Of a stretch of DNA of 64,000 bases, positions 10,863 to 38,125 are shown piece after piece; within the stretch, counting starts at the first letter, position 1, and every line of letters starts with the position of its first letter. The notes beneath the pieces are model-generated. The model made no database searches. It saw only the letters and a list, made by a program, of their open reading frames with translations, and was not told where the DNA came from. This DNA comes from Cyanophora paradoxa CCMP329. Its lineage: Eukaryota > Plantae > Glaucophyta. The stretch covers positions 62,001-126,000 of the forward strand of contig QPMI01000136.1 in NCBI GenBank assembly GCA_004431415.1, written 5' to 3'. Both the position numbers and the translations under genes were made by a program.

Positions 10863-11180
10863 ATGGCAAGCTGGACTACCAGAATGAGTTCAATGATTGA
10901 GAACAAACATTTCGATAAAGATGATTTGAAGGATATACCAGCTCTTATAGACAAAATCATCAAATGCCAAAGCAAATGTGATGGGTATCAAATGTCACAG
11001 CTTTCCTCCAAAGATATTGATTGTTTGCGATTACAAACAGAGAAAAACTTAATTAACGCCCTTAAACAGTATCACAAAAACCCAAATGTATGGACAAAAA
11101 ATGGATCACATAATCCAATGCATTACAAAGCCAAATTGCGAAAGAAACTAGAAAATCGCGTTCAGAACATCTCAGAATAA
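10863..11180 (+). CDS. Hypothetical protein upstream of pPolB; positional counterpart of 43069-43365
   Basis: ATG ORF; C-terminus KLRKKLENRVQN versus RLQQKLANRAEN. Confidence 0.6.
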   Translation: MASWTTRMSSMIENKHFDKDDLKDIPALIDKIIKCQSKCDGYQMSQLSSKDIDCLRLQTEKNLINALKQYHKNPNVWTKNGSHNPMHYKAKLRKKLENRVQNISE

Positions 11181-11214
11181 AATATTTATTGAGAGTAGGA
11201 ACAAGTTAGGAACT

Positions 11215-14460: not shown

Positions 14461-14463
14461 GAG

Positions 14464-15849
14464 ATGCCAGCAACTGGAAGAATAGTTAGGAGAACCACTG
14501 AGCAACTACAAGGTAACCTACTGCCTATCACAGTTCCCAAGGAGGAAAAGGGAGAATCTCGAATTGTAAAAAAGTCAGAGATGAAAGAGCTTGTCCCAGT
14601 AGAGATTCCAGTTGCTATTGCAGTGAAAGAAACCAGCAAGATTGCCAAGAGATTCTATGATGTGAGAACTGGTTACAAAGGGCTTCAAGCTATGAGGGCT
14701 GAGTTACCAGATGAATCCTATAAGCAGTTGCAAGAGTTCTATAAAAAACAAGAGGTAGTTCAGATCAATGCACCTGCTATATCTAGGAAGAGAGATCCCA
14801 TGGTTCCAATAAGGCAACCCCTTGATACCTATGTGATTGATTTGCTCTTTTTCCCAGCTTATAAGAAACAAAACAATGGCTATGATACCTTTATGACTGC
14901 TATGGAATCAACACTGAGAACTGGATATATCATACCTATAAGAGATAAATCAGCTCTCACTACATTAGCTGCATTTAAACAGCTTGAGATGAGAGTGGCA
15001 AGACCCATAGTAAAGGTTCAATCAGATGCTGGGAGTGAATTCCAAAATCGAATATTCCAGGAGTATCTATCTAGTAAATACATAGAACACCAAGTGAGTG
15101 GAACTGCTGACCACAGAAGCCAAGGTCGAATTGAAGCCTTTAACAAGCAGATTAAGAGACTGATCACAAACTACTGCATAGCCAATAACACAGCTAGATT
15201 CTTTGATGTGTTAGGTGACATTGAGTATAATTACAATAATACAGTCCACTCAGCTACTAAGATGAAGCCAGGCGAAACTACAGAGGAGCATTATAGGTAT
15301 ATAGTGGGATTAGAAGATGAAAGATTCAAGAAATCAATAGCTTATCTTGATACCATGCAGCCTGGCATGTTTGTTAGAGTGAAAGTTGAGAAGAACCCCT
15401 TTGCTAAACAGGGTAACAATTGGTCTAGGATGGTTTACACTGTTGATAGTAGGGAAGGCTTTAAGTTTAAGCTAAGGAGTCCCACTGGTGAGATCATAGA
15501 AAACAGGTTTGCTTTCCATGAGCTGTTGCCTGTGAATGCAGTTGAATATCTAGAAACCCCTACAGTGGATGCCTTGGAGCAAGCTAAAGAGGAAGCCAGG
15601 GCTGATGCTGCTATAAGGAGAGAAGGCATAGAAGCTGCTAATGAAGTCCCAGATAAGCCTTTGATAGAGGCTAGAAAGGAGAAGGCTGGGAAAGTTAACA
15701 GGGAACTCAAAAAGCTCACTATAGCAGGGACACAGAAACTTTCTGAGGTTAATAGCCAGAGATGGTATAATGACTTTCAGACTACTAAGGAGTCATATAC
15801 AGCCCCTAAACCTCAGAGAACACTAAGAGAAAGGACCAAAACTAGCTAA
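14464..15849 (+). CDS. RVE (retroviral-like DDE) integrase, Polinton type
   Basis: YVIDLL (D), VQSDAGSEF (D), GRIEAFNKQIK (E), YNNTVHSATKMKP. Confidence 0.92.
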   Translation: MPATGRIVRRTTEQLQGNLLPITVPKEEKGESRIVKKSEMKELVPVEIPVAIAVKETSKIAKRFYDVRTGYKGLQAMRAELPDESYKQLQEFYKKQEVVQINAPAISRKRDPMVPIRQPLDTYVIDLLFFPAYKKQNNGYDTFMTAMESTLRTGYIIPIRDKSALTTLAAFKQLEMRVARPIVKVQSDAGSEFQNRIFQEYLSSKYIEHQVSGTADHRSQGRIEAFNKQIKRLITNYCIANNTARFFDVLGDIEYNYNNTVHSATKMKPGETTEEHYRYIVGLEDERFKKSIAYLDTMQPGMFVRVKVEKNPFAKQGNNWSRMVYTVDSREGFKFKLRSPTGEIIENRFAFHELLPVNAVEYLETPTVDALEQAKEEARADAAIRREGIEAANEVPDKPLIEARKEKAGKVNRELKKLTIAGTQKLSEVNSQRWYNDFQTTKESYTAPKPQRTLRERTKTS

Positions 15850-15898
15850 TTAATAGCATCTAATAAGCATCTCCCCAAGATTCCCCCTATTATTAAAG

Positions 15899-16449
15899 TG
15901 GACTCAAGGTTGACTCATATTAATCGATAGTATATGGATTTTGTTACGAATTCAATGCAAGGGTTGACTAAGTGGGTTGAGTTGACTCAAATTTCACAGG
16001 AAATAACAATGAATCAGAGTATAAAATGCATTATTTGAATCAACTACACCAACTAACACTGAGAAAGTAGGTTATAACATATAGTATTACCATATATGGT
16101 TTGTCAGGCACTATAATATAGTTGTCAGGCACTAATATAGTATGTCAGGCATTGTCAGGCACCTTTTTAGAAAACTTTTATAAAATTGAAATTTCATTGT
16201 TAATCCAAACAATGACTTAGCCAAAATAAAATACTTTATGAAAATCGATAGATTTAATGCCTGACAAATAAATGCTGCCTGAAAGATTTAACACCAACTA
16301 ACACTGAGATTTTCACAATATATGAGGTCCTTACTGAATATGGTTTGTGTCACAGGTGTCACAGGTCTATCCCGTGGATTTTAAAAATCAATTTCTCACT
16401 AGGACTTTCCTTGGGATTGACCTGTGACACCTGTGACACCTGTGACACC
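15899..16449. repeat. Subterminal repeat region with TTGACTCA, TGTCAGGCA (module 3) and GTGTCACAG iteron-like modules
   Basis: TGTCAGGCA at 16102, 16123, 16143, 16153, inverted at 16258 and 16276; GTGTCACAG x2 at 16347, inverted x3 at 16421-16449; 19-bp direct repeat at 16046 and 16291. Confidence 0.85.
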
Positions 16450-16691
16450 CAAATTCCTAAGGGTCCCCCCTTAGACTCAACAAAACAATGATAAAATCAT
16501 ATAAGTTTCATGTATAATTACGATTGAATTCAATAAGAGATCGATTTGTTAATATAAACAAATGAATCATTTATGGATCTTAATCGAGTTTAGCGATATA
16601 TTTCCGATTAAATGAATTAAATTTAATTAAATTTAATCGAGAAAGTACATGAATATAATATCGATTAAATCAATTAACTTTTAGACCAATC

Positions 16692-16974
16692 ACACATAGT
16701 AAAATGCGGAGTTTTAACCAGAGGCAAGATCTAATTGAGATTCAGTTATATTATTCGGAAATATATACAGATTATCGATAGACTCAGTAAGACTAATCGG
16801 AAAATAAGAGAAATTTACGATAAAATATCGAAAAGAATACAAAATAATCGAAATAAATGAATATTCGATAAGATATACACAGATTATCGATTGATTGAAA
16901 TAGAATATACGAGATATATCAACAAAATCAATTAAGATAAGCCGAGGGTTAAAACTCCGCATTTTACTATGTGT
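16692..16974. repeat. Perfect 28-bp inverted repeat forming the right end of element A
   Basis: ACACATAGTAAAATGCGGAGTTTTAACC (16692-16719) and its reverse complement (16947-16974); the GC shift starts right after. Confidence 0.92.
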
Positions 16975-19900
16975 CGCGGGACGGCGAGCTCTGCCCCCAC
17001 GGCCGGGACCACGATCGCGTGGAGACGAGCATGTGGGTGGCGGAGAGCGGCATCCCCGGCGTCCTCGCCGCGACGGCGCACTGCTACTCGCTCCGCTGCG
17101 CCGGCGAGCCGCTCCTGGGCGCCCTCGCGTGGAGCGACCCGGACGCGCTCGGCGACGCGGCGTGCCGCGCCCTGGCCGACGAGGCGCTCCTGCGGCTCCA
17201 CGGGACCGTCGCCGGCATCGCCGACCGCGCCCTGGGGAGCGCGGCGATACGGCGCCAGCAGCGGGCCGATCGGGAGGCCGCGGCCGCCGAGGGGGCCGAT
17301 CCGGACCAGGCCCCTCGGCCCCCGCCCCGCCCGCCCCGCCGACGCTGCCGTCGCGCCCCGACGGGCGGCTCCCGCCCGTGCGCGTCTCCGCGCACGTCGA
17401 GGGCCGCACCTACTGCGTCTGAACCCCCTGCTGGAGCTGCGGGCACCGCAAGGGGCGGGTCTTCATCGACGAGACGTGCGCGGGCGGGACGGGCCGCTGC
17501 AACCGGCGCGGCAGCGTCCGAGTCCGCGCGTGCGCCGCGGCGGCCTGCCAGGGCCGCTGGGCGCACGCGCCCGCGGACCTCGGCGAGGACGACGCGACGG
17601 AGCTGCGGCGCGCCGAGGACGAGGTGGAGATGTTCTCCTCGGGATCTTCCCCGAGCAGAGCGGGACGATGGCGGCCGGCACGTTTGGGGCGACGGAGCGC
17701 AACCCGCACTGGTCGCTCCTCTCGGGGGCCTCGGTCGGCTACCTCGACGCGCTCGGCGCCTGGCTGCGCACCCTCGGCACCGGCGAGGCGCTCCCGGACG
17801 ACGGGGCCCGAGCGGCGCGCCCGCCCCGCGGGGGCCGGGCTCCCGGCTCCCACTTTCTCGAGGACGGCGCCGTCGGCGGGCCGGCGGCCCGCATGCGCGG
17901 CCTGCTGCCGGACCTCGAGACGTGGCGCGGCGCCCTGCGCCTCCCGGACCTCGCGCGGCCGCTGGCGATCCCGCCGGACTTTGATCCCGTCGCCCAACGC
18001 TGGATCGACATCGACGAGCCGGCGGGGGCGGGGGCCCGGCGCTTCTGCAGCCCGGCCCCCATCCTCGCGCGCCTGGACGGCGGGAGGAAGACGATCTTTG
18101 TGCGGGCAGAGACCGGGTGCGGCAAGACGGAGACGTGCGTGGGGAGCCGCGAGGGCTCGGCGGGGGCGGGGCCCCGGGGGATCCTGCAGGCGGTGCTGGA
18201 CGACCCGGCGCTCATGGGGCTCCCCAGCGTCCCCGGCGCGCCGCCCCGCGTCCTCTACGTGACGGTGGGGCGCGTCCAGCCCGACATCCTCGTCAAGGAC
18301 CCCCGCTTCGCGGCCCTCACCTACCCCTCGGCGTCGGGCGAGCGCGTGCCGGTCGCCTGGACCGTCTACAAGGAGGCCCGCTCCGAGGAGCTCGCCGAGG
18401 CGGCGTTTGTCATGTGCACCGTGCAGAGCGGCCGCCGGCTCGAGGGCGACTTTGACGTCGTCATCGTCGACGAGGGGGCGCGGGCCCTCACGACCCTCAC
18501 GACGGGCGGGCCGTTCAAGGGGCCCGAGCACCACGCGCAGACGGTCGCCTGGTTCGACAGGGCGCTGGAGGCGCTGGCGCTCGTGATCGTTGCCGACGCC
18601 GACCTGCTGGACGAGGACGCCGCCCTCTACGCCGCGCGCCGCCCGGGGACGGACGTCGTCTCGTACCTCAAGCGCGGCAGCAACGACGCGCGCCTGCGCT
18701 GGACGGCCATCGACATCCGCTACGCCGCCGCCGTGATCGCCGCCAAGCTCCTCGACGGCGAGGTCGGCTACATCGCCGCCTCGACGCGACGGGCGCACTG
18801 GGAGCTCAAGTCCAACGTCAACCGGCACCTCCGGCTCCGCGGGCAGCGCTGCGAGTTTGTCTACGCCGACGCCGACAAGCGGGCGCGGGACACAATGACG
18901 GACCCGGACTACGTCTCCTCCACCCTCTGCTACGCCGTCAACTACGCGATGCCGCAGGGGAGCGACTTTTCCAGGGGGCGGCCGGCGACGTTTGTCGCCT
19001 ACATCGAAGAGGGGCGCACCGCCGACATCAACGCCGGCTTCCAGCTCGTCCGCCGCCGCCGGCACGTCGTCGGGCCGGACGCCCTGTACTTTTGCCACTT
19101 TCCCAAGTCGGCCCCCCTCCTGGACCGGGTGGGGAGGCCCCTGCACGCTCCCGTCGACTGGCAGGCGATCCACCGCGACCTGACGGACTCGCTCCGCGCC
19201 TGGAACGAGCGGCTCCCCGAGGAGAAGCGCGTGGCGCTCAAGGACCACTACCTGCGCGTGCGGGCGATCCGGACGGCGATCCGAAACGCCACGCACGCGT
19301 GCCCCATGCTGGCGTTTCACCTCAAGCTCCAGTCGCTCGGGAACGAGGGCCTCTACATTCTCCCCCTCCCGCAGCCCCCCGAGGGGTCCAAGAAGGGCTC
19401 GGCCCGCGGCCGCAACCGGCGCGCCCCGGCCGCCCAGGCGCAGGCCCCGGCCCCCGCCGCGCCGTCCGGGGCGCCGTCCGCCGGCGGCCTGCCCTGGATG
19501 CCAGAGGCGTACTCCAAGGAGGCGGGGGTCCTGGCGGCCGAGGTCGAGGCGCGCGAGCGGCTCCTCCCCATCGTCGCCGCCCCGCGCCTCTCCGACTATG
19601 CGTGCGCCAAGGCGATCTGCTCGAGCATGGAGCACGGTACCTCCAAGCTGGAGCTCTCCGACGCCGCCCGGCGCGCCTGGAAGCGCGCGAGGGCCGCCGC
19701 GCGCTTCGGGCTCCACCCCGAGCACGTGGGGCACGCCGAGGTCCGCCTCTCGGAGCAGAGCCCGCCGGTGGAGATCTTCCGCCTCTCCAAGCGGTTCGCC
19801 CTCGACACCCTCGAGTACCTCGCGACCGGCGCGGGGCCCGAGGAGGAGCCGGCGACCCTCCTCCCCGACCACAGCGAGCGCCGGCGTCCCTTTGAGAGCG

Positions 19901-21394
19901 CCCTGCGGCTCTTTGAGCTGCTCGGCGTGCGGATCCCGCCCGGCGGCGTCGGCGGCGGCGGCGCGGCGCTGGCGGCGGGCCTGCGGTACCTCCTCTGGAC
20001 GACGTGGGAGGGGCCCGAGGCGTGGGGGGCGGCGCGCCTGCGCGGACTCGCCGAGGGGCTGGAGAACGGGGGCGCCTTCACGGAGGGGGCCCTCGGGCGC
20101 CTCTTTGCGGACGTCTGCCGCACGGCGTGGGACCGGTTCGCGGCGCCGCTCTCGGAGGAGGTCGCGGGGCGCGAGACGGACCTCCGCTGGGCGTGCGCCG
20201 AGCGCTGGCGGCTCCCGTGCCTCCGGCCGGAGCGGCGCGCCAAGGGGAGCGCCCGCCCGCCCTCGAGGACTGCGCGCGGCGCCTCCTGCATGACCTCGTC
20301 GTCCACGCGGCGGCGCAGCTGGGCCTCGGCGTCCTCATCGCGGCGACCGAGGCGCGGCGGGTGGTGCGGGGCGGACAGCGCACCACCGTCAAGCGCACGC
20401 GCTACTGTTTCGATCCGGAGACGGTCCTCCTGGGCCTGCGCCTCTACGGGCGCGACCGGGACGGGCGGGCCGGCATGCCGCCCAACGCCGCCCTCGCGGC
20501 GCTCCTCGCGGCGGCCGTGCGCTCCCACCAGATCCTGCTCGCGCGGGACCCGGCGTCCAAGCTCGTGACCTCGAGCGAGTGCGGCGGCGGTGGCGGCGGC
20601 GCGCGCAGCGGCCCCGGCGCGGCGCCGGCGGAGGAGGAGGAGGCCTCCCCGCGCCCCGGGGCGGGGGCGTGGCGCGTCGGCAGGCACCTGCGCGCCGGCG
20701 TGCACTCGGAGGTCTTCTTCTCGGAGGCGGCGCGGGCGGTCTTTGGCGCCGACGCCGCCCGCTGCTGGAGGGAGCCCGAGGAGGAGGACCAGGTCGGGTC
20801 GCCCTACGCGGAGCTGCTGGCGCGGGCCGCCGCCAGCGAGGCGACCGAGGCGCTCGTCCCGATCGCGCCGCCCTCGCCGGCGGCGGCGCGGACCCGACGG
20901 CCGCCGCGGTCTGCGCGCGGGACCTGGCGCGCGCCGCGCTGGAGATGCGGGCGGACGAGGCCAAGGGGAGCCTCGGATTCCCCCCCGCCGAGGAGCTGCC
21001 GGCCCTCCCGATCGAGGACGTGACCTGGACGCTCGGTCGCCTCGCCTCGGCCGCCGGCCCGCCCGGCGAGCGCGCCGTTGCGCTGTGCCCCATCGTCGAG
21101 GGCCGCGGGGGCCCGGACCCGTGCATCGGCTTTGCGTACACGGCGATTTTCGCGCAGAAGGAGCTCCTCCCGTCGTCCCGAATCGACCTGGTGCGCTCCG
21201 GGACCGGCGGCTCGGGCGTCTCCCTCTTTGTCGAGGACGCCGCTCGGCGCCTCCCCGCGGAGCTCGCCCGCCCGCGGCTCGAGCGGGCGTCTCGCTCTGC
21301 GGGGCGGAAGATGCTCCTCTTCGTACCCACCTCGACCTTTGCGTTTTTTGGCGTCCCCCTGCCCGGCCTTCCCCCCCCGGCCCCCCTCGCGTGA
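16975..21394 (+). pseudogene. 5'-truncated primase Zn-finger plus UL9-like SF2 origin-binding helicase, several frameshifts
   Basis: CPHGRDH...AHCYSLRC resembles the PrimPol/UL52 Zn finger; FVRAETGCGKT (Walker A), VMCTVQS, DVVIVDEG (Walker B), IVADADL, GSDF, FQLVRRRR; coding continues through the frames of ORFs 20004 and 20579. Confidence 0.75.
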
Positions 21395-21748
21395 CTGAAG
21401 GAGCAGCAATTGCGATTGAGAGGCTTGCATGCGCGTGCTTTTTTTGCGGGGCAACTCGGCATCGCCGTCGCGCCTTGCAATTGCTCCTGCACCGCCCTCT
21501 GCCCCTCTGCGCCCCCCGCGTTTCGAATTTTTTCGCGCAGATCCGGACCCGTCCCCGGCACGTGTACCCCCGTCCCACCTTGGCCTCGCTGCAACCGGAC
21601 CCGGTGCGTGTACCGTTTCCGTACTGCGTGAATGCGGCATTCCCAAATTTGGATTTTTTTTCCCAGCGGACCGATTCACCTGAAAGGGGATCGGGGGGCA
21701 CAAAAAGCGGCCCGCCGCCGCCGGCGCGCCTCAGTCTGCGCCCTCGAA

Positions 21749-23696
21749 ATGGATCCCAACTCGGCCGCCTCCGCCGCCGGCGGCGCGACCGCGGCGGCCC
21801 CTGCCGCTGCAGCAGCAGCCGCCGCCGACGACGCGACCGCGACCGCCGCCGCGGCGGCCAGCGGTCTCGGTCGCGCGCTCCGCTTCGGCCCGAGGACCTT
21901 TGAGAATCCGGCAAAGATCGTACCGTCCATCGAGAAGACGAGCAGGGGCAGGGCGATCGGGATCAACTCGGTGCGCAGGGCCCTCGGCAGGGTCGCACGC
22001 CTCCCGTCCGGCCTCCCCGAGATCATCTTCGCCCACCTGCCGCGAGCGAGGCGCCTCGCCATGCTGCGCACCTGCCAGCAGACGCGCACCTTTGCGCTCG
22101 GCGCGTCCTCGCGCGGCTGGTTTGACGCCCTCTTCGTCGACGACCCGATCGCCCTCATCTCGGGCCCGGCGCGGCCGGCGGCGCCCCGCGCGGCTCCTCG
22201 CCGGGCGCGGCGCGGGCGCAGAGGTGCCCCTCCCCGCAGACTGCGGTCCAAACTGCCTGGACTTTGTACCGGCGTTTTCGCACGGCGACGGCGAGGGCCG
22301 CTGGATGGGCCTGCTCTACCCGCGTGGATGGTTGGGACCCCGCACGCCCACGGTCCTGCGCTACGGGCCCGGCGGGCGCGCCGGCGCCCTGGCAATCCCC
22401 CCGCAAATGGACTTTGCGTTCACCAGCTGCGGGCGCGATTCCTTTGCCATCGGCCGCGACGGCGCCGCCGTGCTCGGCGGCGCGCGCAGCTGGCTGGTCT
22501 GGTCTCCCGACGGCCGCGCGGAGATCGTGGACGTGGGGGCGGTCGTGGGGGGCGTGGTGGCGTGCCGCCCCTCCCCCGACGCCTCTCGCGTCGCCGTCTG
22601 CAGCATCGTCGATCGCCGCATCCTCGTCCGCTTCGTCCGCGTGGGCGACTCTGCCGAGGCGGCCGCCGCGGCGCGCCCCATCGACGTGGGGCCCCTGGAC
22701 TCGGACGCGGCGCGCGGGCGCCTCTCGGAGGATCTCACCTTTCTCGACGGGAGCCACGTCGACGGCGGCGGCCTCCACGCCGGCGCCAACTACCCTTGGG
22801 AGGCCGTGGACGCGGCGCACGCCGATGTCGGCGTGACGTGGAACGCGCCCTGCACCGCGGTCCTGGTCCGCGCCAAGGCATCGACCTGCGCCGTCGACGT
22901 CGAGGGGGACGAAGACGAGTACGCGTTCGAGGCCCACCTGGTGCGGCTCGCGTCGGTGACCCTGGAGGGCCGCTCGCGCGCGTGCTGGTGGTGCACGATT
23001 GGCCAGGCTCCCGTGGACGCCTTTGCCGTCGGCCTCGGGGAGAACTGGCTCCTCCACACCACCCGGCCCGTCGAGGACATCGGCGCGGCGTCCATGTACG
23101 TCTTCTACCTCGACCCTCCCACCGTACGCCGCGGCGACGTCGACATACGGTGCACCATGATCGAGCTGCGGATGCCCTGCCAGGGGTGGTTCTGGGATTC
23201 CATCGTGCCCCTCGGCAACTGGTGCTTCATCTACCAGGCCTGGGGCCAGTTTATGCAGGGCACCGACGGGCACCGCCGCGGGATCAGCCGCCCGTTTCTC
23301 GTCACCATCGAGCGCCGCTCGTCGCACGTCGACTATTTCGAGCTGCGCGGGGCCGCTGGACTGGATCGCGAGCCCAGCGACGACGAGATCGCGGGCCGCC
23401 TGCGGCCCCTGGGCGCCGTGGGGCTCCACGGACTCGCGGTGCTGGGGAGGGGCCAGGGCGGCTGCGCGGTGCACGACGTCGACGTCGTGCGCTACGTGCC
23501 GTGGCCGGGGACGGGCGACCTCGTCCGCCTGGGCGGGAGCGAGACCTCTACGCAGTTTCTGCCCAAGGGGCTGGTGCAGCTGCGGTTCGACACCGCGCCG
23601 TCGACGAGCGACTGGATCGAGGCGCGCTACTCGGGCCCCCACGGCATCGAGCACGGCTGCACGCTCACCTTTGACCCCGAGGTCGACGCGGCGTAG
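21749..23696 (+). CDS. F-box-like protein with beta-rich C-terminus; putative GC-AG intron 22164-22239
   Basis: ARLPSGLPEIIFAHLPRARRLAMLRTCQ F-box-like motif; removing the intron joins ORF 21632 to ORF 21900 in frame. Confidence 0.55.
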
Positions 23697-24039
23697 AGCG
23701 TACACGCCGACGCGCGCCCCGCGCGATCGGAGGGCGGCTCGGCGCGCGCCCCCTTTTCCCCCGCCGCAAAATTAAATGCCCCAATTAGCCGCCGGCCCCG
23801 CGATCGGCCGCTAGCCAAGTACCGTGTCGGTACGCCTATGTGTGCACGCTTCCGATCGTGTGATTACGGGTGCTGCGCGTGCGTACGCGTGCGCGTGGGG
23901 CGCGCCCCAAGCGCGCCGTCGCCTCGCCGAGGGCGTGCGGGACTGCGGGATTCCTCCCCCTGCACGAGAATCTCTCGATTGCTCGGTAGCCCGCGGGGGA
24001 GGGGAGGCGGGAGGGGGGTAGGGGGTGGGGTAGGATGGG

Positions 24040-24780
24040 GGTAGAGGGTTGCTGGAAACGAGAAGGGGTCGGCGGGGCGGGATGGGGGTAGCAAAATGTA
24101 CGCTCCGGCACCTCGCCTGCGCAACGGCCGCAATCTGGTCGCGGGGGGGGAGGGGGTAAGATAGGGGTACAGGGTTGCTGGAACGAGAAGGGGTCGAGGG
24201 GAATAGGAGGACACACGGTTCGGCTCCCGGCAACGTATATTCGATGCGGCCGAGGGCCTGCGGACTCGTTTTCGGTGTGCCGACGGCGCGGCGGGCGGCG
24301 AAAGCGGGCCGTACCCCTGCCGTACTCTCTCCCCCTCCTCCCCCTCCGCCCGTAGATCGTGGAGCGGCTGCATTCTGGTCGGTGTAAGGGAGGGGGAGGT
24401 GCAGCGCCTCCAGGGCAGGGAAGGAAAAAAAGCAGGGCACCGGTTCGACTCTCGATGGGGAAGGGTAGCTCACTCCCGACCAGAATGCGGCCGATCCCGG
24501 TATTAAGGTGGCGGGTCGGGCGTGCGGAGCGGTACCCCCGAGCCTCCCCCTCCCCCCACCCGCCCTCCGCTCGCACCCCCTCCCCACCCTTTGCCGCCTG
24601 TAGATCGTGCAGCGGCCGCATCCCGGCCGCGGCGAGTCGGGTGGGGCGAATGGGGGTACGGGCCGCAGAGTAGGGGCACCGGCTCGACTCTCGGCAGAGC
24701 CCTTCCCGACCCGAATGCGGCCGGCTCCGCCTCCAAGGGCGCCGGGGCAGGCGGGGCGGACGGCGCGTACCCCTGCCCTC
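24040..24780. repeat. Degenerate duplications in a G-run-rich intergenic region
   Basis: GGGTTGCTGGAA(A)CGAGAAGGGGTCG at ~24046 and ~24172; GTAGATCGTG, GGGCACCGGYTCGACTCTCG and GAATGCGGCCG recur about 240 bp apart. Confidence 0.6.
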
Positions 24781-25010
24781 CTGCGCGGCCACGGCGCGGT
24801 CAGAGGGGGCGAGGGGCGCCGGCAGGGGGGTACCGCAGGCCGGGAGAGCGCGCGCACCGAGCCGGCTCGCCGCCCGCCGCCTAGCCTGCTCGGAGCCGCC
24901 CCCGAGCCGTACCCCTGCGCGCGGGACCGAGTCGCACGAAACCGTGCCCGGCAAACGTATAAGAGACGGCGCCGCCGCCGCCGGGGGCCACTTGCGAACC
25001 TGCGAAAAGA

Positions 25011-25702
25011 ATGTGCCGAGACGGGCGCCTGGTCGCAACGCGCGACGGGGACATGGTGTGCGATGCCTGCGGCGAGGCCGAGGCGGCCGCCGCGTCGCTG
25101 GGGCCGCGCGGGACGCCGAAGAGGCCCCGCAGGCCGGCGAGGCCGCGCCGGCGTCGCCCCGGGGCGGCCCGCGGCCCACGCATATGGCGCGCGTGGAGAG
25201 GCTGCTGGAGAGCGCGGCGCTGGAGCTGGGCCTCGCCGACGCGGCGGTCGACGAGGCGCGACGGCTGCTCGCGGACCGCACGCTCCGAGTCGGGCGGAAG
25301 AACGAGATCTCCGTCACCGGGGCCCTCTACTGGGCGGCCGCCGCCGCCGGCGCCCCGCGCACCGTCGAAGAGGCGCTCGGCTGGCACCCCGCCCTGCGCA
25401 CGCGCCGCGCGGCGCTCGTCAGGATGGTCCGCGCGATCCACCGCCGCCGCGGCGTGGGGCGCGTACCCCGCGCGCCCGACTATGTCGACACGCTCGCCCA
25501 TCGCGTGGGGCTGGGCGGGGCCGGCGCGCGGGCGGCGCGCGAGTACGCCGAGCGGCACCGGGACTCGGGGCGGAGCCCGATCGTCATCGCCGCGGCTGCG
25601 CTGGTGGTCGAGGGCGGCGCGTCGGTGCTGGACGCCGCGCGGGCCGCCGGCATCACGGCCGCCGGCGTCAAGCAGTGCATCAAGGCGCTCGCCGCCTCCT
25701 AG
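25011..25702 (+). CDS. TFIIB: Minimal TFIIB-like transcription factor, frameshift at ~25110-25150
   Basis: Zn ribbon DGDMVCDACG (ORF 25011); cyclin repeats with GRK...GALYWA...PRT, DYVDTLAHRVGL and SGRSPIVIAAAAL (ORF 24944). Confidence 0.8.
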
Positions 25703-26510
25703 GAGGATAGAGAGAGAGATAGGTTGAGCGTTGTGTTGCAACTGAGAGCCTGCGGCGGCGCGCGGCGTGTCATTCGTGCATGCGGGAATGAAAGCCTGGC
25801 GCCGGCGGGTCGCACCGGGCACGGCAAGGCAGAGGAATCGTCCAGCCGCACCGCGCGCGCTCGGCTGGAGCGGCCCGGGCGTGCCGCGCGGCGCGATCCG
25901 ACCGCGGCCGCGCCGAGCCCTCGCCTCTGGGACGCGCCCCGGGGGCTTTGGGTGCATCAAACGTAGTTTGAGACGCTCTCCGGTCGATCGGGCCCGAGGG
26001 GCGGCCGGCCGGGTCGCGCGGGGCCCCGCACGGCGGTCGAGGACTCGTTGAGAACTTGACGAGTCCTGGGGAGCAAGCGTGGGCGGGGTACGGGGCGCTT
26101 TCGTTCTCACCCGCCCCTCGGTAAGAGACGAGCCGGACTTGGCAAAATCCTCGGCGGGGCGAGTTCCCCGAGTCGCCCGAGCGGCGGCGCGCGGCGGCGG
26201 GCTCAAGCTTGCCTAGACGCTCGATTTGCATTGCAGCATCCGAAAGGCTACGTGCTATGCGCGTGGGGGGCGAACAGAGAGCGGACCGGCCGCCGGCCGG
26301 GGCCTGCAATCGGCACCCGGGTTCTGCTTGCGGGTCCCAGATCGGCTTGGTTCGCCTCTGATGGCGTCTTCCAACGTTTTCTGATTCCATGACGCGCAGG
26401 CTAGAGCACCCGCGGCCCGCCAGCCGAGGAGTTGACCGCGGCTGCGGCGGGCGCGTGCAGCGCCGTTTCCTTCCTTCTTCGTTGCGCTTCCGCTTGCTCG
26501 GGTGCAGCTC

Positions 26511-27134
26511 CTACGACCCGTCCGAGACCGGGCTCTCGCCTCCCGCGTCGGCGCCCTCGGGGTTGACGTGGACGACGATCTGGGTGCCGCCGCCGGCGCT
26601 CCACTCGGCGGCGAGCTTCTTCATGGCTTCGACGCGCTTCGATGCGGACCCGGTGCGCCCCTTGAGCGCCTGCTCGTAACCCTGGGCCAGGCTGCGGTTC
26701 GGAAACGGCGTGGCGACGGCGACGAGCCGCCAGGGTCCGCGGCTCTTGGTGAACGAGCCGCGGATGGTGCCGCGCGAGTGCTCCTTGTACCTCCGCGCGA
26801 GGCTCGCCGTCTCGCCGCAGTAGAACATCTGCCCGTTGTGCAAGAGGTACACGACGTGCTGCTTCTCAAACTGGTGGTGGAACGCGCGGGCCTTGCCGCC
26901 GCCGCCGCCGCCGCCGCCGCCCGGCGATGCCTTTGCTGCCGCGGCGTCGGCGCCGGCCCCAGGACCGGCGCTCCCGCGCTCCCCGTCGACGCTGCCCTTG
27001 TCCGCATCCGAGTCCTCGTGCGCCCCGTCGCCTTCGCTCCCTCGAGGCTGCTGCCGCGGCTCGCCTTCTTTGACCGCATCCGCAGGAGGCGCGCCCTGCA
27101 TCTCTGCGTCGGCCTCCATGCTGCCAACCCCCAT
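26511..27134 (-). CDS. GIY-YIG endonuclease (Slx1/UPF0213-like)
   Basis: VVYLL...FYCGET..LARRYKEH...FTKSRGPWRLV...AQGYEQALK. Confidence 0.88.
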   Translation of the reverse strand: MGVGSMEADAEMQGAPPADAVKEGEPRQQPRGSEGDGAHEDSDADKGSVDGERGSAGPGAGADAAAAKASPGGGGGGGGGKARAFHHQFEKQHVVYLLHNGQMFYCGETASLARRYKEHSRGTIRGSFTKSRGPWRLVAVATPFPNRSLAQGYEQALKGRTGSASKRVEAMKKLAAEWSAGGGTQIVVHVNPEGADAGGESPVSDGS

Positions 27135-27219
27135 CCGCCGCGCGGCCCCGGCGCGAGGACGGGAGAGCGTCTGGTGCGACCGTCCCCCGTGGCGGCGCGC
27201 GGCAGGCTCGCTTTATGCG

Positions 27220-30200
27220 TTACGCAGATCTCGGCGCGGGCACAAAGGCGTGGTGGGACGGCGGCGGCGGCTGCGGATGCGGCGTGGTGCTGAGCCTGGC
27301 GCGCTTCGGCGGGGCCCCGCCGGGAGACTCGACGCGCGCGAGGGGCGGAGGGCGCCGGCCGGAGGGCACGCGGCGAGAGGCGGCAGCGCGGGGGCGGCGG
27401 GGGCGCGGCGTGTCCGGCCGCCCGGGTCCGTCCATTCCCTCGCGGGGCCCGCCGTCGCCGCCCGCGCTTCCTTTTGCGGGTTCGCCGGCCGGCCTCCGAG
27501 GCGAGGCTGCGGGTCGCTTCGCCTCCCCGCGCCCCGTCAGCCGGACGGCGGCCGCGCCTTGGGCGGCCTCCCGCGCCGCCTCACGGGCGGGCGCCCCGCC
27601 CGCCCCGCCGCGCGACGACGAGGAGGAAGAGGCCGGCGGCGGCGAGGACGCCGGCCGCGCAAAGCCCAGGAGCTCCAGCACCCGCTCGGCGCCGGTTCGG
27701 ATCTCGACGGTGCCGTTGCGGCCCTCGTACTCGACGGGGAAGAGGGCGCTCACGCCCGTCCACTCGCGAGGTCCGCCCTCCTGGCTCGCCGTCCACGCCC
27801 CGCCGAACCGCTTCAGCAGGACGAAGCGGGACTCGAACTCGCCGCTCGGCAGGTCGATCGTCTGGACGAGGCGCGCGTACACCACGTTGGGCAGCGGGCT
27901 CGCCGCGTGCGTCGCCAGCGCCGCCACCACCTGCCCCGCCGCGTACGGCGAGGCCGACCGCCAGCGCAGGTGGTAGAGGGCGGCGGCGGCCCCGCCGCGG
28001 GCACGGCGACGGGGCGGGAACGGCGCCGCCGCGGCCCGGCCCGAGGCCCCGCCGGCGGCTGAGGCCCCGCCGGCGGCCGCCGCGGATGAGCCCCGGGAGC
28101 AGTAGCTCGCGTGGTGCTTCGCCCCGGCCGCGTTGTTGAACGCCTCGCGGTGCGTCGGGGCGGTAAAGGCGGGAGGCGCGGGGCGCGGGGCGGGCGCGGT
28201 CTCACCCGGTCGCAGGGCTCGCAGTAGCGCTGCTCGGCGATCGCCAGCGCCCGCTCGACGGCATAGTCGGCGTCCCAGGGCCGCTGAGGCCCCCCCGCGC
28301 TGCCGGTCCGGCGCCGCTTGGCCTCGAGCCGCCCCCGTCCCCCTCGTCCCCTTCTTCCTCCTCCTCCTCCTCTTCCTCTTCCTCCTCTTCCTCTTCCTCG
28401 TCACTCAAGTCGAACGAGCTGGAGCTCCCGCCCTTGCGCGCCGGCTCGGGGCTCGTCGACGGCGTCGGCGCCTGCGTCGACGGCGTCGGCGCCTGCGTCG
28501 CCGGCACCGCCTCGCCCTCGTCTCCGGCCTCTCTCTCTTTCTTTTTCTTTTCCTCCTTCTCCCCCTGGTGTTCCTCGTCGCCGTCCTCCCTCGCCGCCTT
28601 GCCGCCGCGGCTCCCGCCGCCCGCCGCCCGCCCCTTGCTCCGGCCGGCCCCTCGGCGCGCAGCGCGGGGCGCCGCCGGACGGGGCGCGGGGTCGGCCGCC
28701 GGCCCCTCCAGGAGCGGCGGCTCGGGCCCGTCGGGGCTCTCCCGCGCGCGGCGCCTCTCCTCCACGTGCTTCAGCGCCAGCTGCTCGAGGTACGCCACCG
28801 CCGAGGCCGCCGCGCGCGCGCGGGCCGAGTAGTCGTAATTCTGCGTCGCAGTGACGACGCTGTGCCCCAGCAGCTTGGCTGCGCGGGGGCGCGGTGACGG
28901 CGGGCGCGGCGGCGGGCGCGGCGGCGGGCGCGGAGGCGGGCGCGGGAGCGGGGTGCGGCGCACCCGTCCCCTCGACGACGGCGGCGGCGGTGTCGCCGGA
29001 GATGCGGTTCGCGGCGGCCTCGTCCCGCACGTGCGTCGTGATGATGGCGCGGATGGCCTGCGCCGTCACCGGCACGCCCGTGTACTTTTCCGTCACCTGC
29101 GGTGCGTGAGCCTCTCCCCCCTCAGCCCGCCCGCCCCCCCGCGCGCCTTTTTCACAAAGTTGCTCCAGCCGGCGTCGGAGAGGAGCGTTCCCGTCGGGCC
29201 GGTGAAGAGCCAGCCCTCGTCGGCGGCGCCCGTCGTCGGCGGGAAGAGGAGGCGGCGGTAGCGCTCGACGTACAAGGTGAGCGGCTCCTGGACAAACCCG
29301 GGGATCGGAAAGGTCATCGCGCCGGCAGTCTTGGCCGTCTTGGACGAGAGGACCGGCTCGGCGCCCCCGACGTCGATTCTCATCTTTGTGAGCGCGATCG
29401 CCCACGCGCCCTGGTCCCTTCGGAGCGTGTGACCGATCCTGCGCAGGGCGCGCGGTGGCCATGGGGGCGGGGCGGGAGGGGCGGCGGAGGGGGGGTACAG
29501 CACCTGAGGCGGCGGACGATGCCGACGCGCGAGGGCGTCGAGACGAGGAGGGAGAGGAGGAGCCCCTCGCGGAGGGCGAGGGCCTTGTCGTACTCGAGCG
29601 GCGCCCGCTCCGCCGCCTCCAGCGCGTCCAGCCGCGCCGAGAGGAGCGTCTCAAAGGGCACCCAGTTCGGTCCGCGCTCGCGCCACTTGACCCCCTCCCG
29701 CTTCTCCTTTCTCAGCTGGGCGAGCAGGTTGCGGAGGCCGCGGGCGTGGGGCCCCTCGGAGCCCGCCGCCGCGCCCGACGTGCGCGCGTGGACAAAGGCG
29801 TGGGCCTGGAGCGCCGCCTGCGTGTACCCCGCCAAGGTGGCCGCCTGCACCTTGCGCTCCCCGCGGAGAAACGTGAGGAACCGCATCCACAGGTCGATGA
29901 AATCGACGCGGGCGCCGGAGAAGAGCTCGAGCGTCGGGGCGCCGTCGATCTTCTCGCGGAGGGCGCAGTACCCCAGGAAGCGCAGCAGCGTCGTCCGCTC
30001 GTTGGCCAGCGTCGAGGAGCGCTCGACGGCGGCGCCGGGGCGGTCGGGGTTGAGGGCGCGGGTACGCCACTCTTCGTACGCGGCGAGCTGCGCCTTGAGC
30101 TCCCGCGACTGATCCTCCTCGCGCAGGCCGTACGGGGCGGCGCGCTCGGCCGACGGCTCCTCGGGGGCCTCGGCGTCGGAGCCCGCGTCGCCCGGCGCCG

Positions 30201-32090
30201 GCAGCGGCGGCGGCCGCGGCGAGCTCGAGGGGGAGGACGAGGGGTCGGCGCCGGGATCGCTCCCCTCGCTGCCGGAGCTTGTCGAGCTCTCCCCGAGGTC
30301 GACGGCTCGAATCCCCACGGCGGCGCCCGGCGGAGCCTGGCGGGACGCTGCGGCGGCGGCGGCGGCGGCAGCGGCGGCAGCGGCGGCGCGGGGCCGCTCC
30401 TCGGCGGGGAGGACCACGCGCTCGGGGTCCGGCAGGGCGTCGGCGTCAAAGAGCGTGATCGACGGGTCGAGGATCATGCTCTCCAGCATCGACCGGTACG
30501 CCTGGCGCTTCTCCACGATAAACTTGGCGTTGTCCTTGGCGACGGCGTCTGACATGGGGCCCCCCGGGCGGTAGAACATCAGCTCGCCGTGTGCCAGCTC
30601 GTCCGACCACGAGAAGCCCGTCGCCGCCTCCAGCGTCGCGCCCTCGGCGAACCAGAGGATCCCTGCCGGGGGCCCGTCAAGGGGGCGCTGCGGGAATGGG
30701 CGCCGAGGGAGAGGCGCGCACACGGCCCGCACTGGTACCCGTCCACCTGGAGCCGCCCGCCGCTCGTCTCGTCCACGAACTGGTGCGCGGGAAACGCCGC
30801 CTTGGCCGCGTAGACGAGCGACGGGTCGCAGGGGTCGCCGAGCGAGTCCCAGTACCGAGTCTTCGCCCCGCCGAGCACGACGAGGGTCCAGTGGCCGCCG
30901 CTCGCCGAGCGCTTCTCGGCCCCGCGGCGCACGAGGCTCGTCGAGACGGGGCAGATGACGGTGCCGCCCCTCGCCACGAGCGACAGCGCGCGCCGCTTAC
31001 GGCGCTCCTCGCTCGCAGCCGCGTACCGGCGGAGGACCGAGGCGAGGATGTCGACGCTCATCGGGTAGAGGGCCCGCACGCGGCCGTTGTTGGCCTTGCG
31101 CAGGATGAGGGTGAGCACGTTGGCGATGTGCGTGTCCGTGAGCCACTCGCGCGCACCAAAGATCGGGACGCGGCGCGCAGGCGGGACGGGCGCGGGAACG
31201 GCGGCGGCGGCGGCGACGGGGTCGGCGCCCTCGAGGACGAGCCGCTGGCGCTTGAAGTCGGCGAGGAGGCTCGCGTCGCGCCCCGGTAGGTCCTTTAGGA
31301 ACATCTCCACGCCGAGCGCGCTGATGAAGCCCCAGGTGCGGGCAAAGCCGCGCGAGGCCTCGCCCTCGACCTCGGAGCCCAGGCCGGCGTACCGCGTCAG
31401 CGTCTGCGTGACGAGGCCGAAGCGCTCGCGGCCGATGCTCAGCGTCGTCACGTTCCAGCGGTGCGGCCCGTCCCGCGCGAGGTCCGGGAGGCGCCTCTCG
31501 ATCTCGCGCCGCACGCAGTTTGTGTCGCGGGAGGAGCCGTAGAGGGCGTCGGCGAGCGAGGCCATCGGCACCCAGAGCTGCAGGTCCGGCACCTCGATCC
31601 GCTTGGCGCGCAGCGCGTACATCCGCTTGCCGCCGACGCGTACGACGTGCAGGTCGAGGCGCGCGAGGGTGCGGGGCCGGCGGCGCTCGTTGGCGGCGTA
31701 GAACGAGGCGGCGGCGGCGCGCTTCCGCGGCTCGTCCGTCCCCTCCCACGCCTCGGCGATCACCTCCAGCACGTAGCGCATCGCCACCATCCGCGGCGGC
31801 GACTCGGGCGTGCACTCGCGCCGGCGGACGGCGCCCAGCGCCTCGAGCAGCAGGATGGCGTTCTCGTCGGGCAGCGGCCGCGTCGGGACGCCGTAGCGGA
31901 CGGTGAGGAGGTCCTCGGCCTCGGCCTCGGGCCCGTCGGCGTCGGGGCGCGGCTCGCCGAGGAGGCGCGCCAGCTGGGCCGAGCACGCGGCGGGGCCCGC
32001 CGTCGTCGGGAGGACGACGAGGCGCTCCGGCCCCCAGGGCCCGGCATACTCGACGAGCTCGTAGGCGTCGTGTACCGTCGGGAAGGACAT
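27220..32090 (-). CDS. Spliced fusion: Ulp1/C48 cysteine protease - tyrosine recombinase - acidic tract - C2HC Zn finger
   Basis: Protease WLTD, GHWTL, YWDSL, QVDGYQCG; YR PSR, SKT, QAIR, LLGHS, QNY. Introns 30663-30721, 29439-29503, 29097-29146 (GC) and 28879-28963 each restore the frame. The 3' end needs one frameshift (~28290) and an intron (~28145-28205). Confidence 0.8.
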
Positions 32091-33934
32091 CACGGCACGT
32101 CTGCGGTTCCGAGTTGCGGCCGGCCTCGAGCCTGAGGTGCACACCCCTTCCCTTCCCCCCTGGCGCGGGGCAGGGAGGGGGCCTGCGGGCCCGGAGTGAG
32201 ACGTGGGTGTGCAGGTGAGTACGGCAGGAGGCTCGGGAGGAGGGGCGGGACGACGGATGCCCCAGCATTGAGGCGGGTGGATGCATTTATGCGTGTTCCA
32301 TTCTGATGTGGCGCGCGCTCGCCCGCGCGCGCTCGCCCCACCTTTTGTACAGGCTGAGCCGACGTAGAGTGGGGGAGTGGGGGGCATGGGGGTACGGGTC
32401 CGATGTCGAGCCCTAGGCCTCAGTCCTCCTGATCCACGTAGGCTTTCTAATGGGCCGCATTCTGACCAGCGTGCAACTAAACGCCGCTATACCGTTGTGA
32501 AAATCAGAGTTCAACTTTGTCCTCTCCGAAAACCGCGTGTCCGGGCCTATAGCTAACCATAATGTACATGTGGCTTCTTCGAATTCGGCCGCGGGGCCGG
32601 GGCTACGCCGTGTGACGGGTTGATGGGGGTTCGCGGGCCGGCGCCGCGGCCCGGCGGTATACGTAGCCGGAAGAGCGACGAGCTTAAGGAGCCGCTGAGC
32701 ACGGCGCGTGGGAATCGGATTTTAAGATTGCAAAGTTCGGAGCCGCGGCGCGGCCCCGGGCGCCGGCCGGCACCATGCAAGACAAGGCATAGGGGTATAC
32801 GCACAACGGATCAACGCATACGCTAGTACTAGTATAGTACGTATACTCAGCTGCAGTATATCGTATACGTAGTACGTAAACTTGCGCCTTCGAAGTCAAG
32901 TGCAAGCCTTGAAGGCGCCGCCAGGTCGCACGGCAGGCCGGCACTGCGGCATCTAGCCTAGGCCTCCGCTAGCCTAGTAGTGTTACTGCATTAGGCGCGC
33001 GCCGCTCACTCGAGCTCGACGTTCAACGGTTGTTCGACAAGTTCTAGTAACGAATCGTCACACACACGGCGTCGGCCGCGCGGCGTCTACGGCCAAGCTC
33101 AAGGTGCGGTCAATTGCAAGATGCCAATGCTAGCTATAGGAGGCATCTGTACATGTAGCTATAACCTCGCGCGTATGGTTAGCAGCACGAGCTAGAGCTT
33201 CCAGCGAGTCCATGGCCAGCCCGCGGCCGCGGCCGCGTGCCGGCGCGGCATCCGCAAGTTCCATCATGATCAGTCGCCCACCGGGCATGGCCAATTGCAC
33301 CGCAACAACGCTATAGCTATGAAGAGGGCCCAACTTGGCAATACTATGATATATGAGCATCCGCGTGTACGGCAGCCGCAGACGGATTGCCCTTGGGCAT
33401 GGCCATGTTAACGTTATGCGCATGCATGCATATGTGCCGACGTCGATGCCGACGTCGCCGGCGCGGGCCAGCTGCAGCCCGGCGGGTCAGCGCTAGCATG
33501 CGTATGCATATGTCTGACCCATAAGCGGCACGCCTGCGCAGCTTCCGGCGGGCGTGGTGTTTGAACGCGCACGTGCACGTGCAAGCAATATTCATGGATG
33601 ACGACGCAGGTGCATCTCGCCTGGCCCGGTGCCACTGGGCCAGCAGCCGCAGCTGCTTCGAACTCGCAGCGCCCGGATGTGTCGATGTCGCCGGCGCCGT
33701 GCACGCCGTGTGTGTGACATGGCCCTGTGCGCAGACCGGGAGGCGCCGGCGCCGGCGCCGGCGCACGCGCGATCAACACGAGCTGCAGGCTCGAGCTCGC
33801 CGGCTCCGGGGCCGCACGTACACGCAGCAGAGGCCGAGGCCGCAGCCGCAGGAGGATCGCAAGATGCAGTCGCCGTGCGCACGCGATCGCGAGCGCCCCC
33901 ACGCGAGCTCCCGTCCCAGCCCCGCACTCACCGG

Positions 33935-34968
33935 ATGCATCTGCAGACCCGAATTCCCAGAAGCGTCCTTATCGAGTGGCGACCGCAGCGCGAGCATTTC
34001 CCCGCGGATGCGTTCTCCGGTGCGGAAGATTTCGGGCGCGCTCTGGCCTGGCTCGAGGACCGCAAGACCCAGGATTGCTATCCAATCTTCAGCGCGCTCG
34101 AGTACCAACGTTCCGGTTTCGGGGCTATCAACAAACGGTCTCGTGCTGCAGCGTCGATAGGGCGACTGCATCCCGACAAGTGGCCCAACAAAACCCAAGA
34201 GGGGATCAAGTACATCACGCAAGTGATCCAGCAGCTCCTCGACGAGCTGGAAGCTCTGCGCACGTTTTCCACCGATGCGGCGGAAGACGAGCGCGATGCG
34301 GCGGCGGCCGAAACCTTTCTGAGCAACAGAGTCCCCTTTCAGTGCGAAGATCAGAGTGCCGAGGAGAGCGAAGCCGAGGACCCTCGTGAACACGAACGTG
34401 TGGAGGAGATCGTTCAGCTCGTCCTCGACAACCTGTGGAAGACAAAACGGTCGTGGAGGGAGCACTACCAGAGGCATTCGTTGTGGAAACAGTTCATCCG
34501 AGAACTGGTCGAGTCGGGGAGGATCGTTCGTTCGGGTGCGCAAGGCGCTCGCATGCGTCGACTCGGCCGCAAACTCGAGCTCTGTGCATCTGGCCAGGTC
34601 GAGCAAAAACTCGACCGCAAACTCGAGCTCTCGAGCTCAGTCGCTGTCCAATCTGCCCCACACCGGCTTCAGCTCCCAATCGCCAGAGCTCGCTCCCTGG
34701 AGGCAGTTCTTCAGCCAGGCGACTCGATGCTGGCGTCTCGGTCGACGTCTTGCTGGCGTTTGACACGAAGGGTGCGGAGCTGGCAGCCCGGGTCTACCCG
34801 GAAGATAGCCGGCGTGATCTAGACGCTTTGTTTCGTTTGATCAACAAGGCCTCGATCGAACGAAAGCTCAAAAAGAACGACAGGGCGAAAGAGAACGCCG
34901 AGAATGAACGCAGGTTCGAATTCTCTTACCTTTTCGCTCAAAGAGAAAAGAGCTCGCATTGCATATAA
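33935..34968 (+). CDS. Divergent J-domain (HPD) protein, exon structure uncertain; may continue into 35290-37565
   Basis: YPIFSALEY...AINKRSR...RLHPDK followed by a helix. Confidence 0.5.
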
Positions 34969-35289
34969 TTCCAAAATGCCTTTTGACCGGCCGCCTTTTT
35001 TTCTGCGGCCGCAGGCTTGAAAAGCAACGCAGGTTCTCTGGCTACTTTCTTTTTCAAAAGCATAAGGCTCACATTACATTCAACGTTCCCTTCAAATTTT
35101 GACCGGCTGCAATTTTTTCTGCGATCGCAGGGAGCTTTCGGAGCTTCAGAATTCGAACGGCTCCCAATCTGAGAGCCCGCAGAATCCACCCCCGGCCGAT
35201 CGCGAGCGCGACGATGCAAGGTTTTTATATTCTCTTGCATTACGATTGCATATATGCGCGCCGGATTATTGATGTAATCTGCAGAGGGG

Positions 35290-37565: not shown

Positions 37566-38125
37566 TATCGATGCGGTCCTAACATGATCACTAGGTGCGT
37601 TTTCCATATCAACGTGCAACACCGCGCGCGAAATCTGCCGCATGCGGCCTCGGTGTCCACTTTTTAAAAATGATATATCCCGTCGCAGTATGTACCCTCT
37701 TACGGCGAGAGGCTGGTCGACCGCGCGTTTTTGGACGGGCTGGCGTCGGGATTCGAGCTCGGAACACTCTCAAGCTATCGCAGGCTAGGGCAGCAACGTA
37801 AAAAACCAGGTCGACATCCTGGATTGTTGCGCGCCTTTTTCTCTCTCTTTTTTGGCCGGACGACGCTGCATCTACCGCGTAATTACAATCAAAATTGCAT
37901 CCTTTGTTTTATTCTCGCCGATTCGCCTGCTCTTTAACCGAATTATTAAATTTAAAGGCCGGGTATTGATGTGGGAATGGATCCGGAAGATCTAGAGATG
38001 GGGTGGGTCACCGAGAAGAGGGTTTGCCGAGGTGACGAGGCTGAGGCATGGCTGCACATGTACACGTGGACATGTAATTTGCAAGGGTCAAGTATTTATG
38101 TGGGTGTCGGGGCGCCCTGCGGCGG

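Follow-up and report, generated by a model that had tools for sequence, protein, structure and literature searches.

Genes of the block

In a 64,000-nt window of the Cyanophora paradoxa CCMP329 genome (contig QPMI01000136.1), we found five genes packed into a GC-rich block at 16975..32500, directly to the right of a polinton-like virus, here called element A. From left to right they encode a zinc-finger/SF2 helicase (+), a 650-aa protein (+), TFIIB (+), a GIY-YIG endonuclease (-) and a Ulp1-like protease joined to a tyrosine recombinase (YR) (-). GC content is 0.70-0.80 over 17.0-32.0 kb, compared with 0.31-0.43 on the left side and 0.55-0.64 across 32-38 kb, and the boundaries are sharp. At about 75%, the GC of the block contrasts with the roughly 40% of the adjoining polinton-like virus and exceeds the genome mean of 67.6% (PMC6704402; for this and every other publication cited, statements refer to the parts of the source that were available). 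It resembles that of an intron-rich gene at about 57-60 kb (GC 0.67-0.74) which, by eye, is probably a host gene. GC at third codon positions (GC3) is 0.89-0.97 in the five block genes, 0.32-0.38 in element A and 0.55-0.70 in the right-flank open reading frames (ORFs). Composition is uniform throughout the block, with no internal step. A first-pass annotation, made from the letters alone, had described a compact block with host-like GC content, which the sharp boundaries and the likeness to the probable host gene confirm; it had also called the element giant, a term that goes beyond the 15.5 kb visible here.

16968..21394, + strand: 5'-truncated replicase gene with two zinc-finger-like motifs, a UL9-like SF2 helicase and a long C-terminal region
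21749..23696, + strand: protein of about 650 aa without family match (first annotated as an F-box protein), GC3 0.92
23700..25010: 1.3 kb without coding sequence, containing short, imperfect repeats in direct and inverted orientation
25011..25702, + strand: minimal TFIIB of about 225 aa, with a short N-terminal Cys motif and two cyclin repeats (PF00382, E 2.6e-6)
26511..27119, - strand: GIY-YIG endonuclease (PF01541, E 4.6e-8)
27537..32090, - strand: Ulp1-like protease, tyrosine recombinase, C2H2-like finger and C-terminal domain; 3' end approximate
32091..32750: approximate right edge of the block and upstream region of the YR gene; GC per 200 nt drops from 0.81 to 0.55-0.68
16692..16974: right terminus of element A, with a 47-nt inverted repeat (16692-16738 / 16928-16974); GC rises from 0.33 to 0.79

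The helicase of the replicase gene had no Pfam match, and a Cyanophora paradoxa gene model (tig00000540 g1925) is 100% identical to it. A profile of six helicase paralogues retrieved the herpesvirus origin-binding protein (UL9), which accounted for four of the six PDB sequences listed (E 6.5e-8 to 3.5e-7); UL9 was the only significant PDB family, with nothing else below E 0.2 among the matches listed. The first-pass annotation had read this gene as a PrimPol-Zn/UL9 helicase, of which the UL9-like helicase and the zinc-finger-like motifs stand, whereas the AEP (primase) domain is absent from the window, where only the two zinc-finger-like motifs lie upstream of the helicase. Two paralogues, P0009 and P0010, carry a domain ahead of the zinc fingers with DxD, SGxKGxH and a third Asp motif, and a further one, P0008, retains the central motif. 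Leads to the identity of this domain were weak (Pfam LigD_Prim-Pol at E 0.01; Atlas scores of 0.92-0.93 to prim-pol families). The AEP profile had no PDB match, and an AlphaFold model built from three sequences had a mean pLDDT of 42 and returned empty fold searches. Similarity to P0009 starts at its residue 476, at base 16968, where element A stops (residues 476-525 align at 54%). Two contigs from runs labelled RNA end at 16974, and a 1500-nt contig, likewise from an RNA-labelled run, runs on from element A with unlike sequence, the pattern that the end of a multi-copy element should give (four read runs carry the RNA label, which is a guess throughout). We infer that element A landed within the replicase gene and that what is missing of the block lies past the left edge of the window. 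Kinship of the block helicase with element A's own helicase was considered, and none was found.

The Ulp1-YR assignment of the first-pass annotation was borne out by weak but concordant library matches on sibling gene models and by catalytic motifs in a stop-free spliced frame. The sibling P0003 matched Pfam Phage_integrase (E 0.02), a PHROG integrase (E 3.7e-4) and XerC (E 3e-3), and its Atlas features linked it at 0.96 to a cluster with 15% PF00589. The Ulp1-like domain matched Pfam C48 on the divergent model P0006 (E 0.005), its profile retrieved a deubiquitinase (E 0.006), and the block copy keeps the H, D, Q and C residues. Introns are predicted at 30721-30663, 29503-29439, approximately 29146-29097 and 28963-28879, with a fifth probably from 28205; the four located ones would be 50-85 nt each, and alignments to P0006, which is 50-60% identical, break at or beside each of them. 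The spliced frame, 1144 aa to 28400, is free of stops and contains all the catalytic motifs (R, K, x-x-x-R, H and Y), with the His of H-x-x-R replaced. The YR profile found no recombinase among PDB sequences, and because the AlphaFold model (six sequences) had a mean pLDDT of 42 and its fold searches were empty, integrase and telomere resolvase are not separable by fold. RNA-labelled contigs from two runs align to 32213-32505 and to 32213-32598, apart from their first 122 letters, which fall elsewhere. A + strand GT-AG intron at 32137-32214 would fit these contigs, the joint itself not being displayed, and would imply, if the guessed label is right, splicing of a transcript that runs antisense across the beginning of the YR gene.

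The TFIIB call also held: beyond the PF00382 match, the sibling P0015 matched the NCBIfam TFIIB model (E 1.4e-11), and the TFIIB profile retrieved TFB/TFIIB structures (E 5e-5 to 7e-4). At 225 aa, the block protein is without most of the N-terminal region of its 316-aa cellular match. The GIY-YIG call is upheld by its PF01541 match, and in P0006 the YR is followed, in the same orientation, by a GIY-YIG homologue. The 650-aa protein had no match in Pfam, PHROG or PDB sequences (Pfam and PDB searched at E up to 10), and its single NCBIfam row covers 29 residues of an unrelated family (E 0.044). The F-box and ubiquitin hijack once proposed for it came from a motif seen by eye near 21990-22100 and found no library support. 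Between this gene and TFIIB, the non-coding stretch is a candidate promoter or origin region, judged from its sequence. It contains the motif GAATGCGGC twice, and the motif occurs once more ahead of the 21749 gene and once ahead of the YR gene, which makes four matches compared with 1.08 expected for a motif picked post hoc.

In the assembly, frameshifts interrupt the helicase, the 650-aa gene and TFIIB. Contigs built from the short reads of two DNA runs exceed the assembly in length by 8 bases over 17103-18068 and by 5 over 19898-25432, and frame arithmetic requires 2 mod 3 in the first interval and 1 + 1 + 2 + 1 = 5 bases in the second. Because these contigs add exactly the bases needed, the frameshifts are very likely assembly errors. 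We rejected a pseudogene reading of the frameshifts on these base counts; the rejection covers the frameshifts only, and the replicase gene has an in-frame TGA at 17420. With the missing bases counted, four of the five block genes are intronless, in an alga that averages 9.2 introns per gene (PMC6704402); the host-style introns of the first-pass annotation are thus present in the YR gene but not in the other four. When sibling contigs were compared, 15 of 29 substitutions within the tested reading frames were synonymous, against 26% expected (P 0.003), and none was nonsense; these 29 came from the 40 difference rows listed out of 384. The excess suggests purifying selection between copies.

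Read depth varies along the block. Over the helicase core, the GIY-YIG core and the Ulp1 exon, contigs reach approximately two to four times single-copy depth and carry 2-5% other letters (95-98% identity). A single-copy contig of 6158 nt begins at 32013, and identity to the close YR copies ends at 32,042, within coding sequence. The uneven depth and this break indicate that the copies are mosaic, with no recent burst of the whole block evident, and members of the family appear to be mosaics that swap gene segments. No clear terminal repeat was identified at the right edge.

Relatives of the block genes

The relatives form a family of other Cyanophora paradoxa gene models. For the YR there are four models at approximately 90% identity in the core and two at 60%; for the helicase, five others at 26-78%, with only six matches in total among 1.84 billion representatives (E up to 0.001), all from Cyanophora paradoxa; and for TFIIB, five other gene models on four contigs. 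Queries of IMG/VR with the YR, the helicase and the YR, AEP and TFIIB alignments gave no relative, apart from one that the helicase query flagged without a locus. Metagenomes searched with two YR patterns and phage records searched with P0009 and P0003 gave none; the helicase alignment contains no stretch conserved well enough for a pattern scan.

We then asked of the gene models how far the block genes travel together, judging synteny from gene-model numbers. On tig00020509, an AEP-helicase (g9756, 34% identical) and a YR + GIY-YIG model (g9764, approximately 60% identical in the YR core) are 8 gene numbers apart, and the divergent YR model there runs into a same-strand GIY-YIG, which is the order found in the block. 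The chance of such proximity is about 0.02 under uniform placement, and higher if viral genes cluster. This linkage in a divergent copy supports a unit. The first proposal had hung on the genes being linked in other copies: helicase, YR and GIY-YIG are so linked on tig00020509, but the closer paralogues lie on different contigs and share none (YR on 269 (twice), 411 and 658; TFIIB on 21045 (twice), 21583, 21046 and 760; helicase on 849). The linkage searches were length-limited and incomplete, and missed even the block's own YR model.

Comparison with known systems

Each pairing of genes in the block has precedent, and the full combination was not found in the literature searched, which did not extend to figures or preprint supplements. 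In polinton-like viruses, AEP replicases associate with YRs and in a minority of cases form fusions with SF2 helicases, and independent movement of replication modules has been proposed (Barth et al., bioRxiv 10.64898/2026.10.13.758929). Figure 6E of that preprint shows an element with the Cyanophora prefix, EVE_QPMI01_83, in which a lone AEP gene accompanies a pair of transpoviron-like units; it may be the same locus or a relative. Cryptophyte polinton-like viruses also encode a primase-SF2 fusion (PMC12220804). The block shares with the Polisuviricotina, as described, a primase-SF2 helicase fusion (putative, the primase part being judged from paralogues), a YR integrase, a GIY-YIG nuclease, the size range and integration in protist genomes. 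The replicase and integrase of polinton-like viruses are both represented, by the UL9-like helicase, the AEP-type motifs of the paralogues and the YR. It differs from Polisuviricotina in that no capsid, penton or A32 ATPase gene was seen, TFIIB is present, and the YR, whose gene contains spliceosomal introns, is joined to a Ulp1-like protease.

As in the AEP-UL9-like primase-helicases R8, pF1055L and SF2_hel, the SF2 helicase is closest to herpes UL9 (E 6.5e-8). TFIIB together with an AEP-UL9-like primase-helicase, no DNA or RNA polymerase and, as proposed here for the block, nucleus-dependent replication are also reported for SmDNAV and the 'Ariadnavirales' (bioRxiv 10.64898/2026.08.29.747986), but these have genomes of >200 kb with a major capsid protein (MCP), an ATPase, VLTF2/3 and PCNA, no YR is listed in the text available, and they have no sequence match to the block. 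The SF2_hel of Mriyaviricetes (bioRxiv 10.1101/2024.02.29.582850) likewise combines AEP with a UL9-like SF2 helicase in small polymerase-less genomes, all of which, as described, encode a HUH endonuclease, MCP and VLTF2/3, none seen in the block.

On the integration side, Cryptons with a C48 peptidase (CryptonF-2_PS and CryptonS; PMC3212892) share a YR, a Ulp1-family protease and the lack of long terminal repeats, whereas the available text mentions no replicase or TFIIB for them. The Crypton catalytic residues R, K, R, H and Y are present in the block YR, with the first His replaced, and the block has no reverse transcriptase; the YR had no Pfam match to GCR1_C (CryptonF) or DUF3504 (CryptonA). 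Starships, like the block, have an inward-pointing YR gene at one end, followed by further genes (PMC11162782), but the host of the block is not a fungus, and its YR has genes for replication and transcription as neighbours. The defining domain of a Starship captain is DUF3435 (PMC11162782), which matched neither P0002, P0003 and P0006 (E up to 5) nor the block-copy exons (E up to 1). The comparison with a captain drawn in the first-pass annotation thus agrees with the inward orientation of the YR, which lies at the right end, and fails on the defining domain. Phaeovirus insertions in algal genomes, too, have their YR close to one end (PMC13236599); they are complete giant viruses with defined CC junctions, neither of which was seen in the block. 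In function, the block resembles the replication-integration module of small DNA viruses that replicate in the nucleus, and it was not assigned to any named family.

Origin of the block

We favour, at about even chances, a reading in which the block is the right-hand part of a virus-derived, YR-integrating, nucleus-replicating element that was interrupted within its replicase gene by a polinton-like virus, and whose family, as judged by similarity searches, is so far known only from Cyanophora paradoxa. Points in its favour are the linkage on tig00020509, the high GC3 common to all five genes, reading frames that look intact, sibling contigs of raised depth over three of the genes, the four genes without introns, and the precedents for AEP replicases with YRs in polinton-like viruses and for TFIIB with an AEP-UL9 protein in SmDNAV. 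The mobile or viral origin first proposed is supported by multi-copy paralogues in a single genome, AEP-UL9-like paralogues, intact motifs and the recurrence of helicase, YR and GIY-YIG; a unit in which all five genes move together goes beyond these observations.

By analogy with what is proposed for Cryptons and phaeoviruses, excision by the YR would release the element as a circle, and re-integration would use a few bases of homology. The AEP-Zn-UL9 protein may open an origin in the nucleus and prime synthesis there; as the block is without a processive polymerase, we assume that host polymerases would elongate, as has been argued for polymerase-less mriyaviruses. The minimal TFIIB may direct host TBP and RNA polymerase II towards promoters of the element, and the GIY-YIG protein may act as a homing or recombination nuclease. 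Ulp1-type proteases remove SUMO or ubiquitin-like marks, and the Ulp1-like domain might strip such marks to counter silencing.

No MCP, minor capsid protein, A32 ATPase or penton was recognised in 16975-32500, where the 650-aa gene is without a family and from which the left part, outside the window, is missing. A capsid module may lie beyond element A, which would make this an endogenous virus, an outcome we consider rather unlikely. That the element is a capsid-less replicon seems to us comparably doubtful. Such a replicon could be a self-replicating integrative YR transposon with its own primase-helicase and TFIIB, cycling between chromosome and circle, a proposal we make only tentatively. 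It might, with the same reserve, have resided in the nucleus long enough to acquire introns and to split into lineages only 30-60% identical. If true, a capsid-less element would be a eukaryotic counterpart of bacterial replicating integrative elements and would link Cryptons to nucleus-replicating DNA viruses; a clear free-standing AEP-YR module that brings its own transcription factor did not turn up in our literature searches. The family offers apparently intact genes and several lineages in one cultured alga with a public assembly and published methylation data, and GC-rich virus-type genes in Cyanophora would escape capsid-based surveys.

Several observations weigh against the favoured reading. 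All sequence-level relatives found are other Cyanophora paradoxa gene models, with none outside this genome. A YR match was found on one of the five other helicase contigs, a helicase match on one of the five other YR contigs, and a helicase or YR match on none of the four other TFIIB contigs. Unbroken single-copy contigs cover 19898-26613, and single-copy sequence resumes from 32013 onward, while the YR 5' exon has extra copies that are 98% identical; the close YR copies are therefore not accompanied by a close copy of the TFIIB segment. The YR gene alone contains introns, and this points to a separate history for it. Neither a terminal repeat nor a target site, empty site or circle junction came to light, the left part lying outside the window, and the AEP identity of the paralogues' N-terminal domain is weakly indicated, by the motifs, the Pfam value of E 0.01 and the Atlas rows.

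It is quite possible, although we lean the other way, that the block is a patchwork: an intron-bearing, Crypton-like Ulp1-YR transposon with a GIY-YIG passenger, lying beside an unrelated intronless viral fragment that comprises the replicase, the 650-aa gene and TFIIB. The restriction of introns to the YR gene, the near-identical YR copies alongside a single-copy 19.9-26.6 kb, and the failure of close YR, TFIIB and helicase paralogues to share a contig all fit such an origin, as do the oomycete Cryptons that encode a C48 peptidase besides the YR (PMC3212892) and the plentiful mobile neighbours in the window, which include the polinton-like virus, two further probable pPolB genes (one a fragment) and a LINE. 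Against a patchwork, the helicase and the YR/GIY-YIG recur within 8 gene numbers in a copy that is only 34% and 60% identical, composition shows no step at the supposed seam, and GAATGCGGC, the motif chosen post hoc, lies upstream of three genes on both sides of it.

An improbable alternative is that the block is a small piece of a large endogenous nucleocytovirus of hundreds of kilobases, phaeovirus- or ariadnavirus-like, whose other genes are elsewhere or lost. Giant endogenous viral elements have been reported in Cyanophora paradoxa (PMC12344493), but six contig names looked up in the supplement text of that paper were absent, and the reported elements are not mappable to the window. AEP-UL9 proteins occur in mimiviruses, African swine fever virus, mriyaviruses and SmDNAV (the two preprints cited above), and phaeovirus insertions have a YR near one end (PMC13236599). 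However, MCP, A32 ATPase, VLTF2/3, PCNA and polB were not recognised in the block, the five IMG/VR queries placed no relative, GC3 is near saturation, the YR has spliceosomal introns, and in Bellas 2023, in the part available, all 366 Cyanophora capsid hits fall into two polinton-like groups. Least probable are domesticated or ordinary host genes clustered by chance, for although host-like GC, the YR-gene introns, the hint of purifying selection and RNA-labelled contigs of low depth that match the block TFIIB exactly point that way, the 225-aa TFIIB without most of the cellular N-terminal region is multi-copy with no close relative outside the genome, the helicase matches are as narrowly confined as described above, and a virus insertion in the replicase gene has been tolerated.

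Flanking DNA

Element A is a polinton-like virus of known kind, with genes for patatin, an A32 ATPase, pPolB and an rve integrase across window bases 1-16,974 (GC 0.31-0.43). One split ORF closely resembles, by eye, a Cyanophora capsid protein in the supplement of Bellas 2023; this probable capsid ORF is interrupted by a stop (3550-4960), and the patatin is fused to a discoidin domain. Read depth is in the thousands, compared with approximately 110 for single-copy DNA, which implies many copies. A 189-nt inverted repeat (85%) at 7558-7746 and 16080-16268 flanks the probable helicase, pPolB and rve genes, with a third, partial copy at 10679-10778 and the capsid module outside the bracket; the bracketed helicase-pPolB-rve unit resembles the transpoviron-like modules described by Barth et al. 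A second pPolB at 43385-46648 (43.4-46.6 kb; GC 0.47) is related to that of element A, and no capsid gene was recognised in its vicinity; a fragment of what is probably a third pPolB was seen by eye at 62708-64000, without Pfam match. Both loci are candidate transpoviron-like elements.

To the right of the block, 33602-37562 and 41149-42536 hold intronless ORFs of intermediate GC and no family match, one with a Cys-rich finger. Two of these ORFs contain an HPD motif, which is J-domain-like. Reads show this region as single-copy up to 35,000, and the contig extends to approximately 38.2 kb. An exact look-up of ten flanking ORFs matched one, a singleton. A tandem array of six to seven units of about 143-148 nt occupies 38125-39100, with degenerate copies at 40628-40990, and a 29-nt inverted repeat (90%) pairs 25762-25790, downstream of TFIIB, with 39405-39433 in the right flank, 13.6 kb apart. 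A LINE reverse transcriptase lies at 50.6-56.1 kb. Just past the 3' end of its frame, a perfect 30-nt inverted repeat with an 8-nt spacer spans 50392-50459, and similar words occur near 50520 and 56105.

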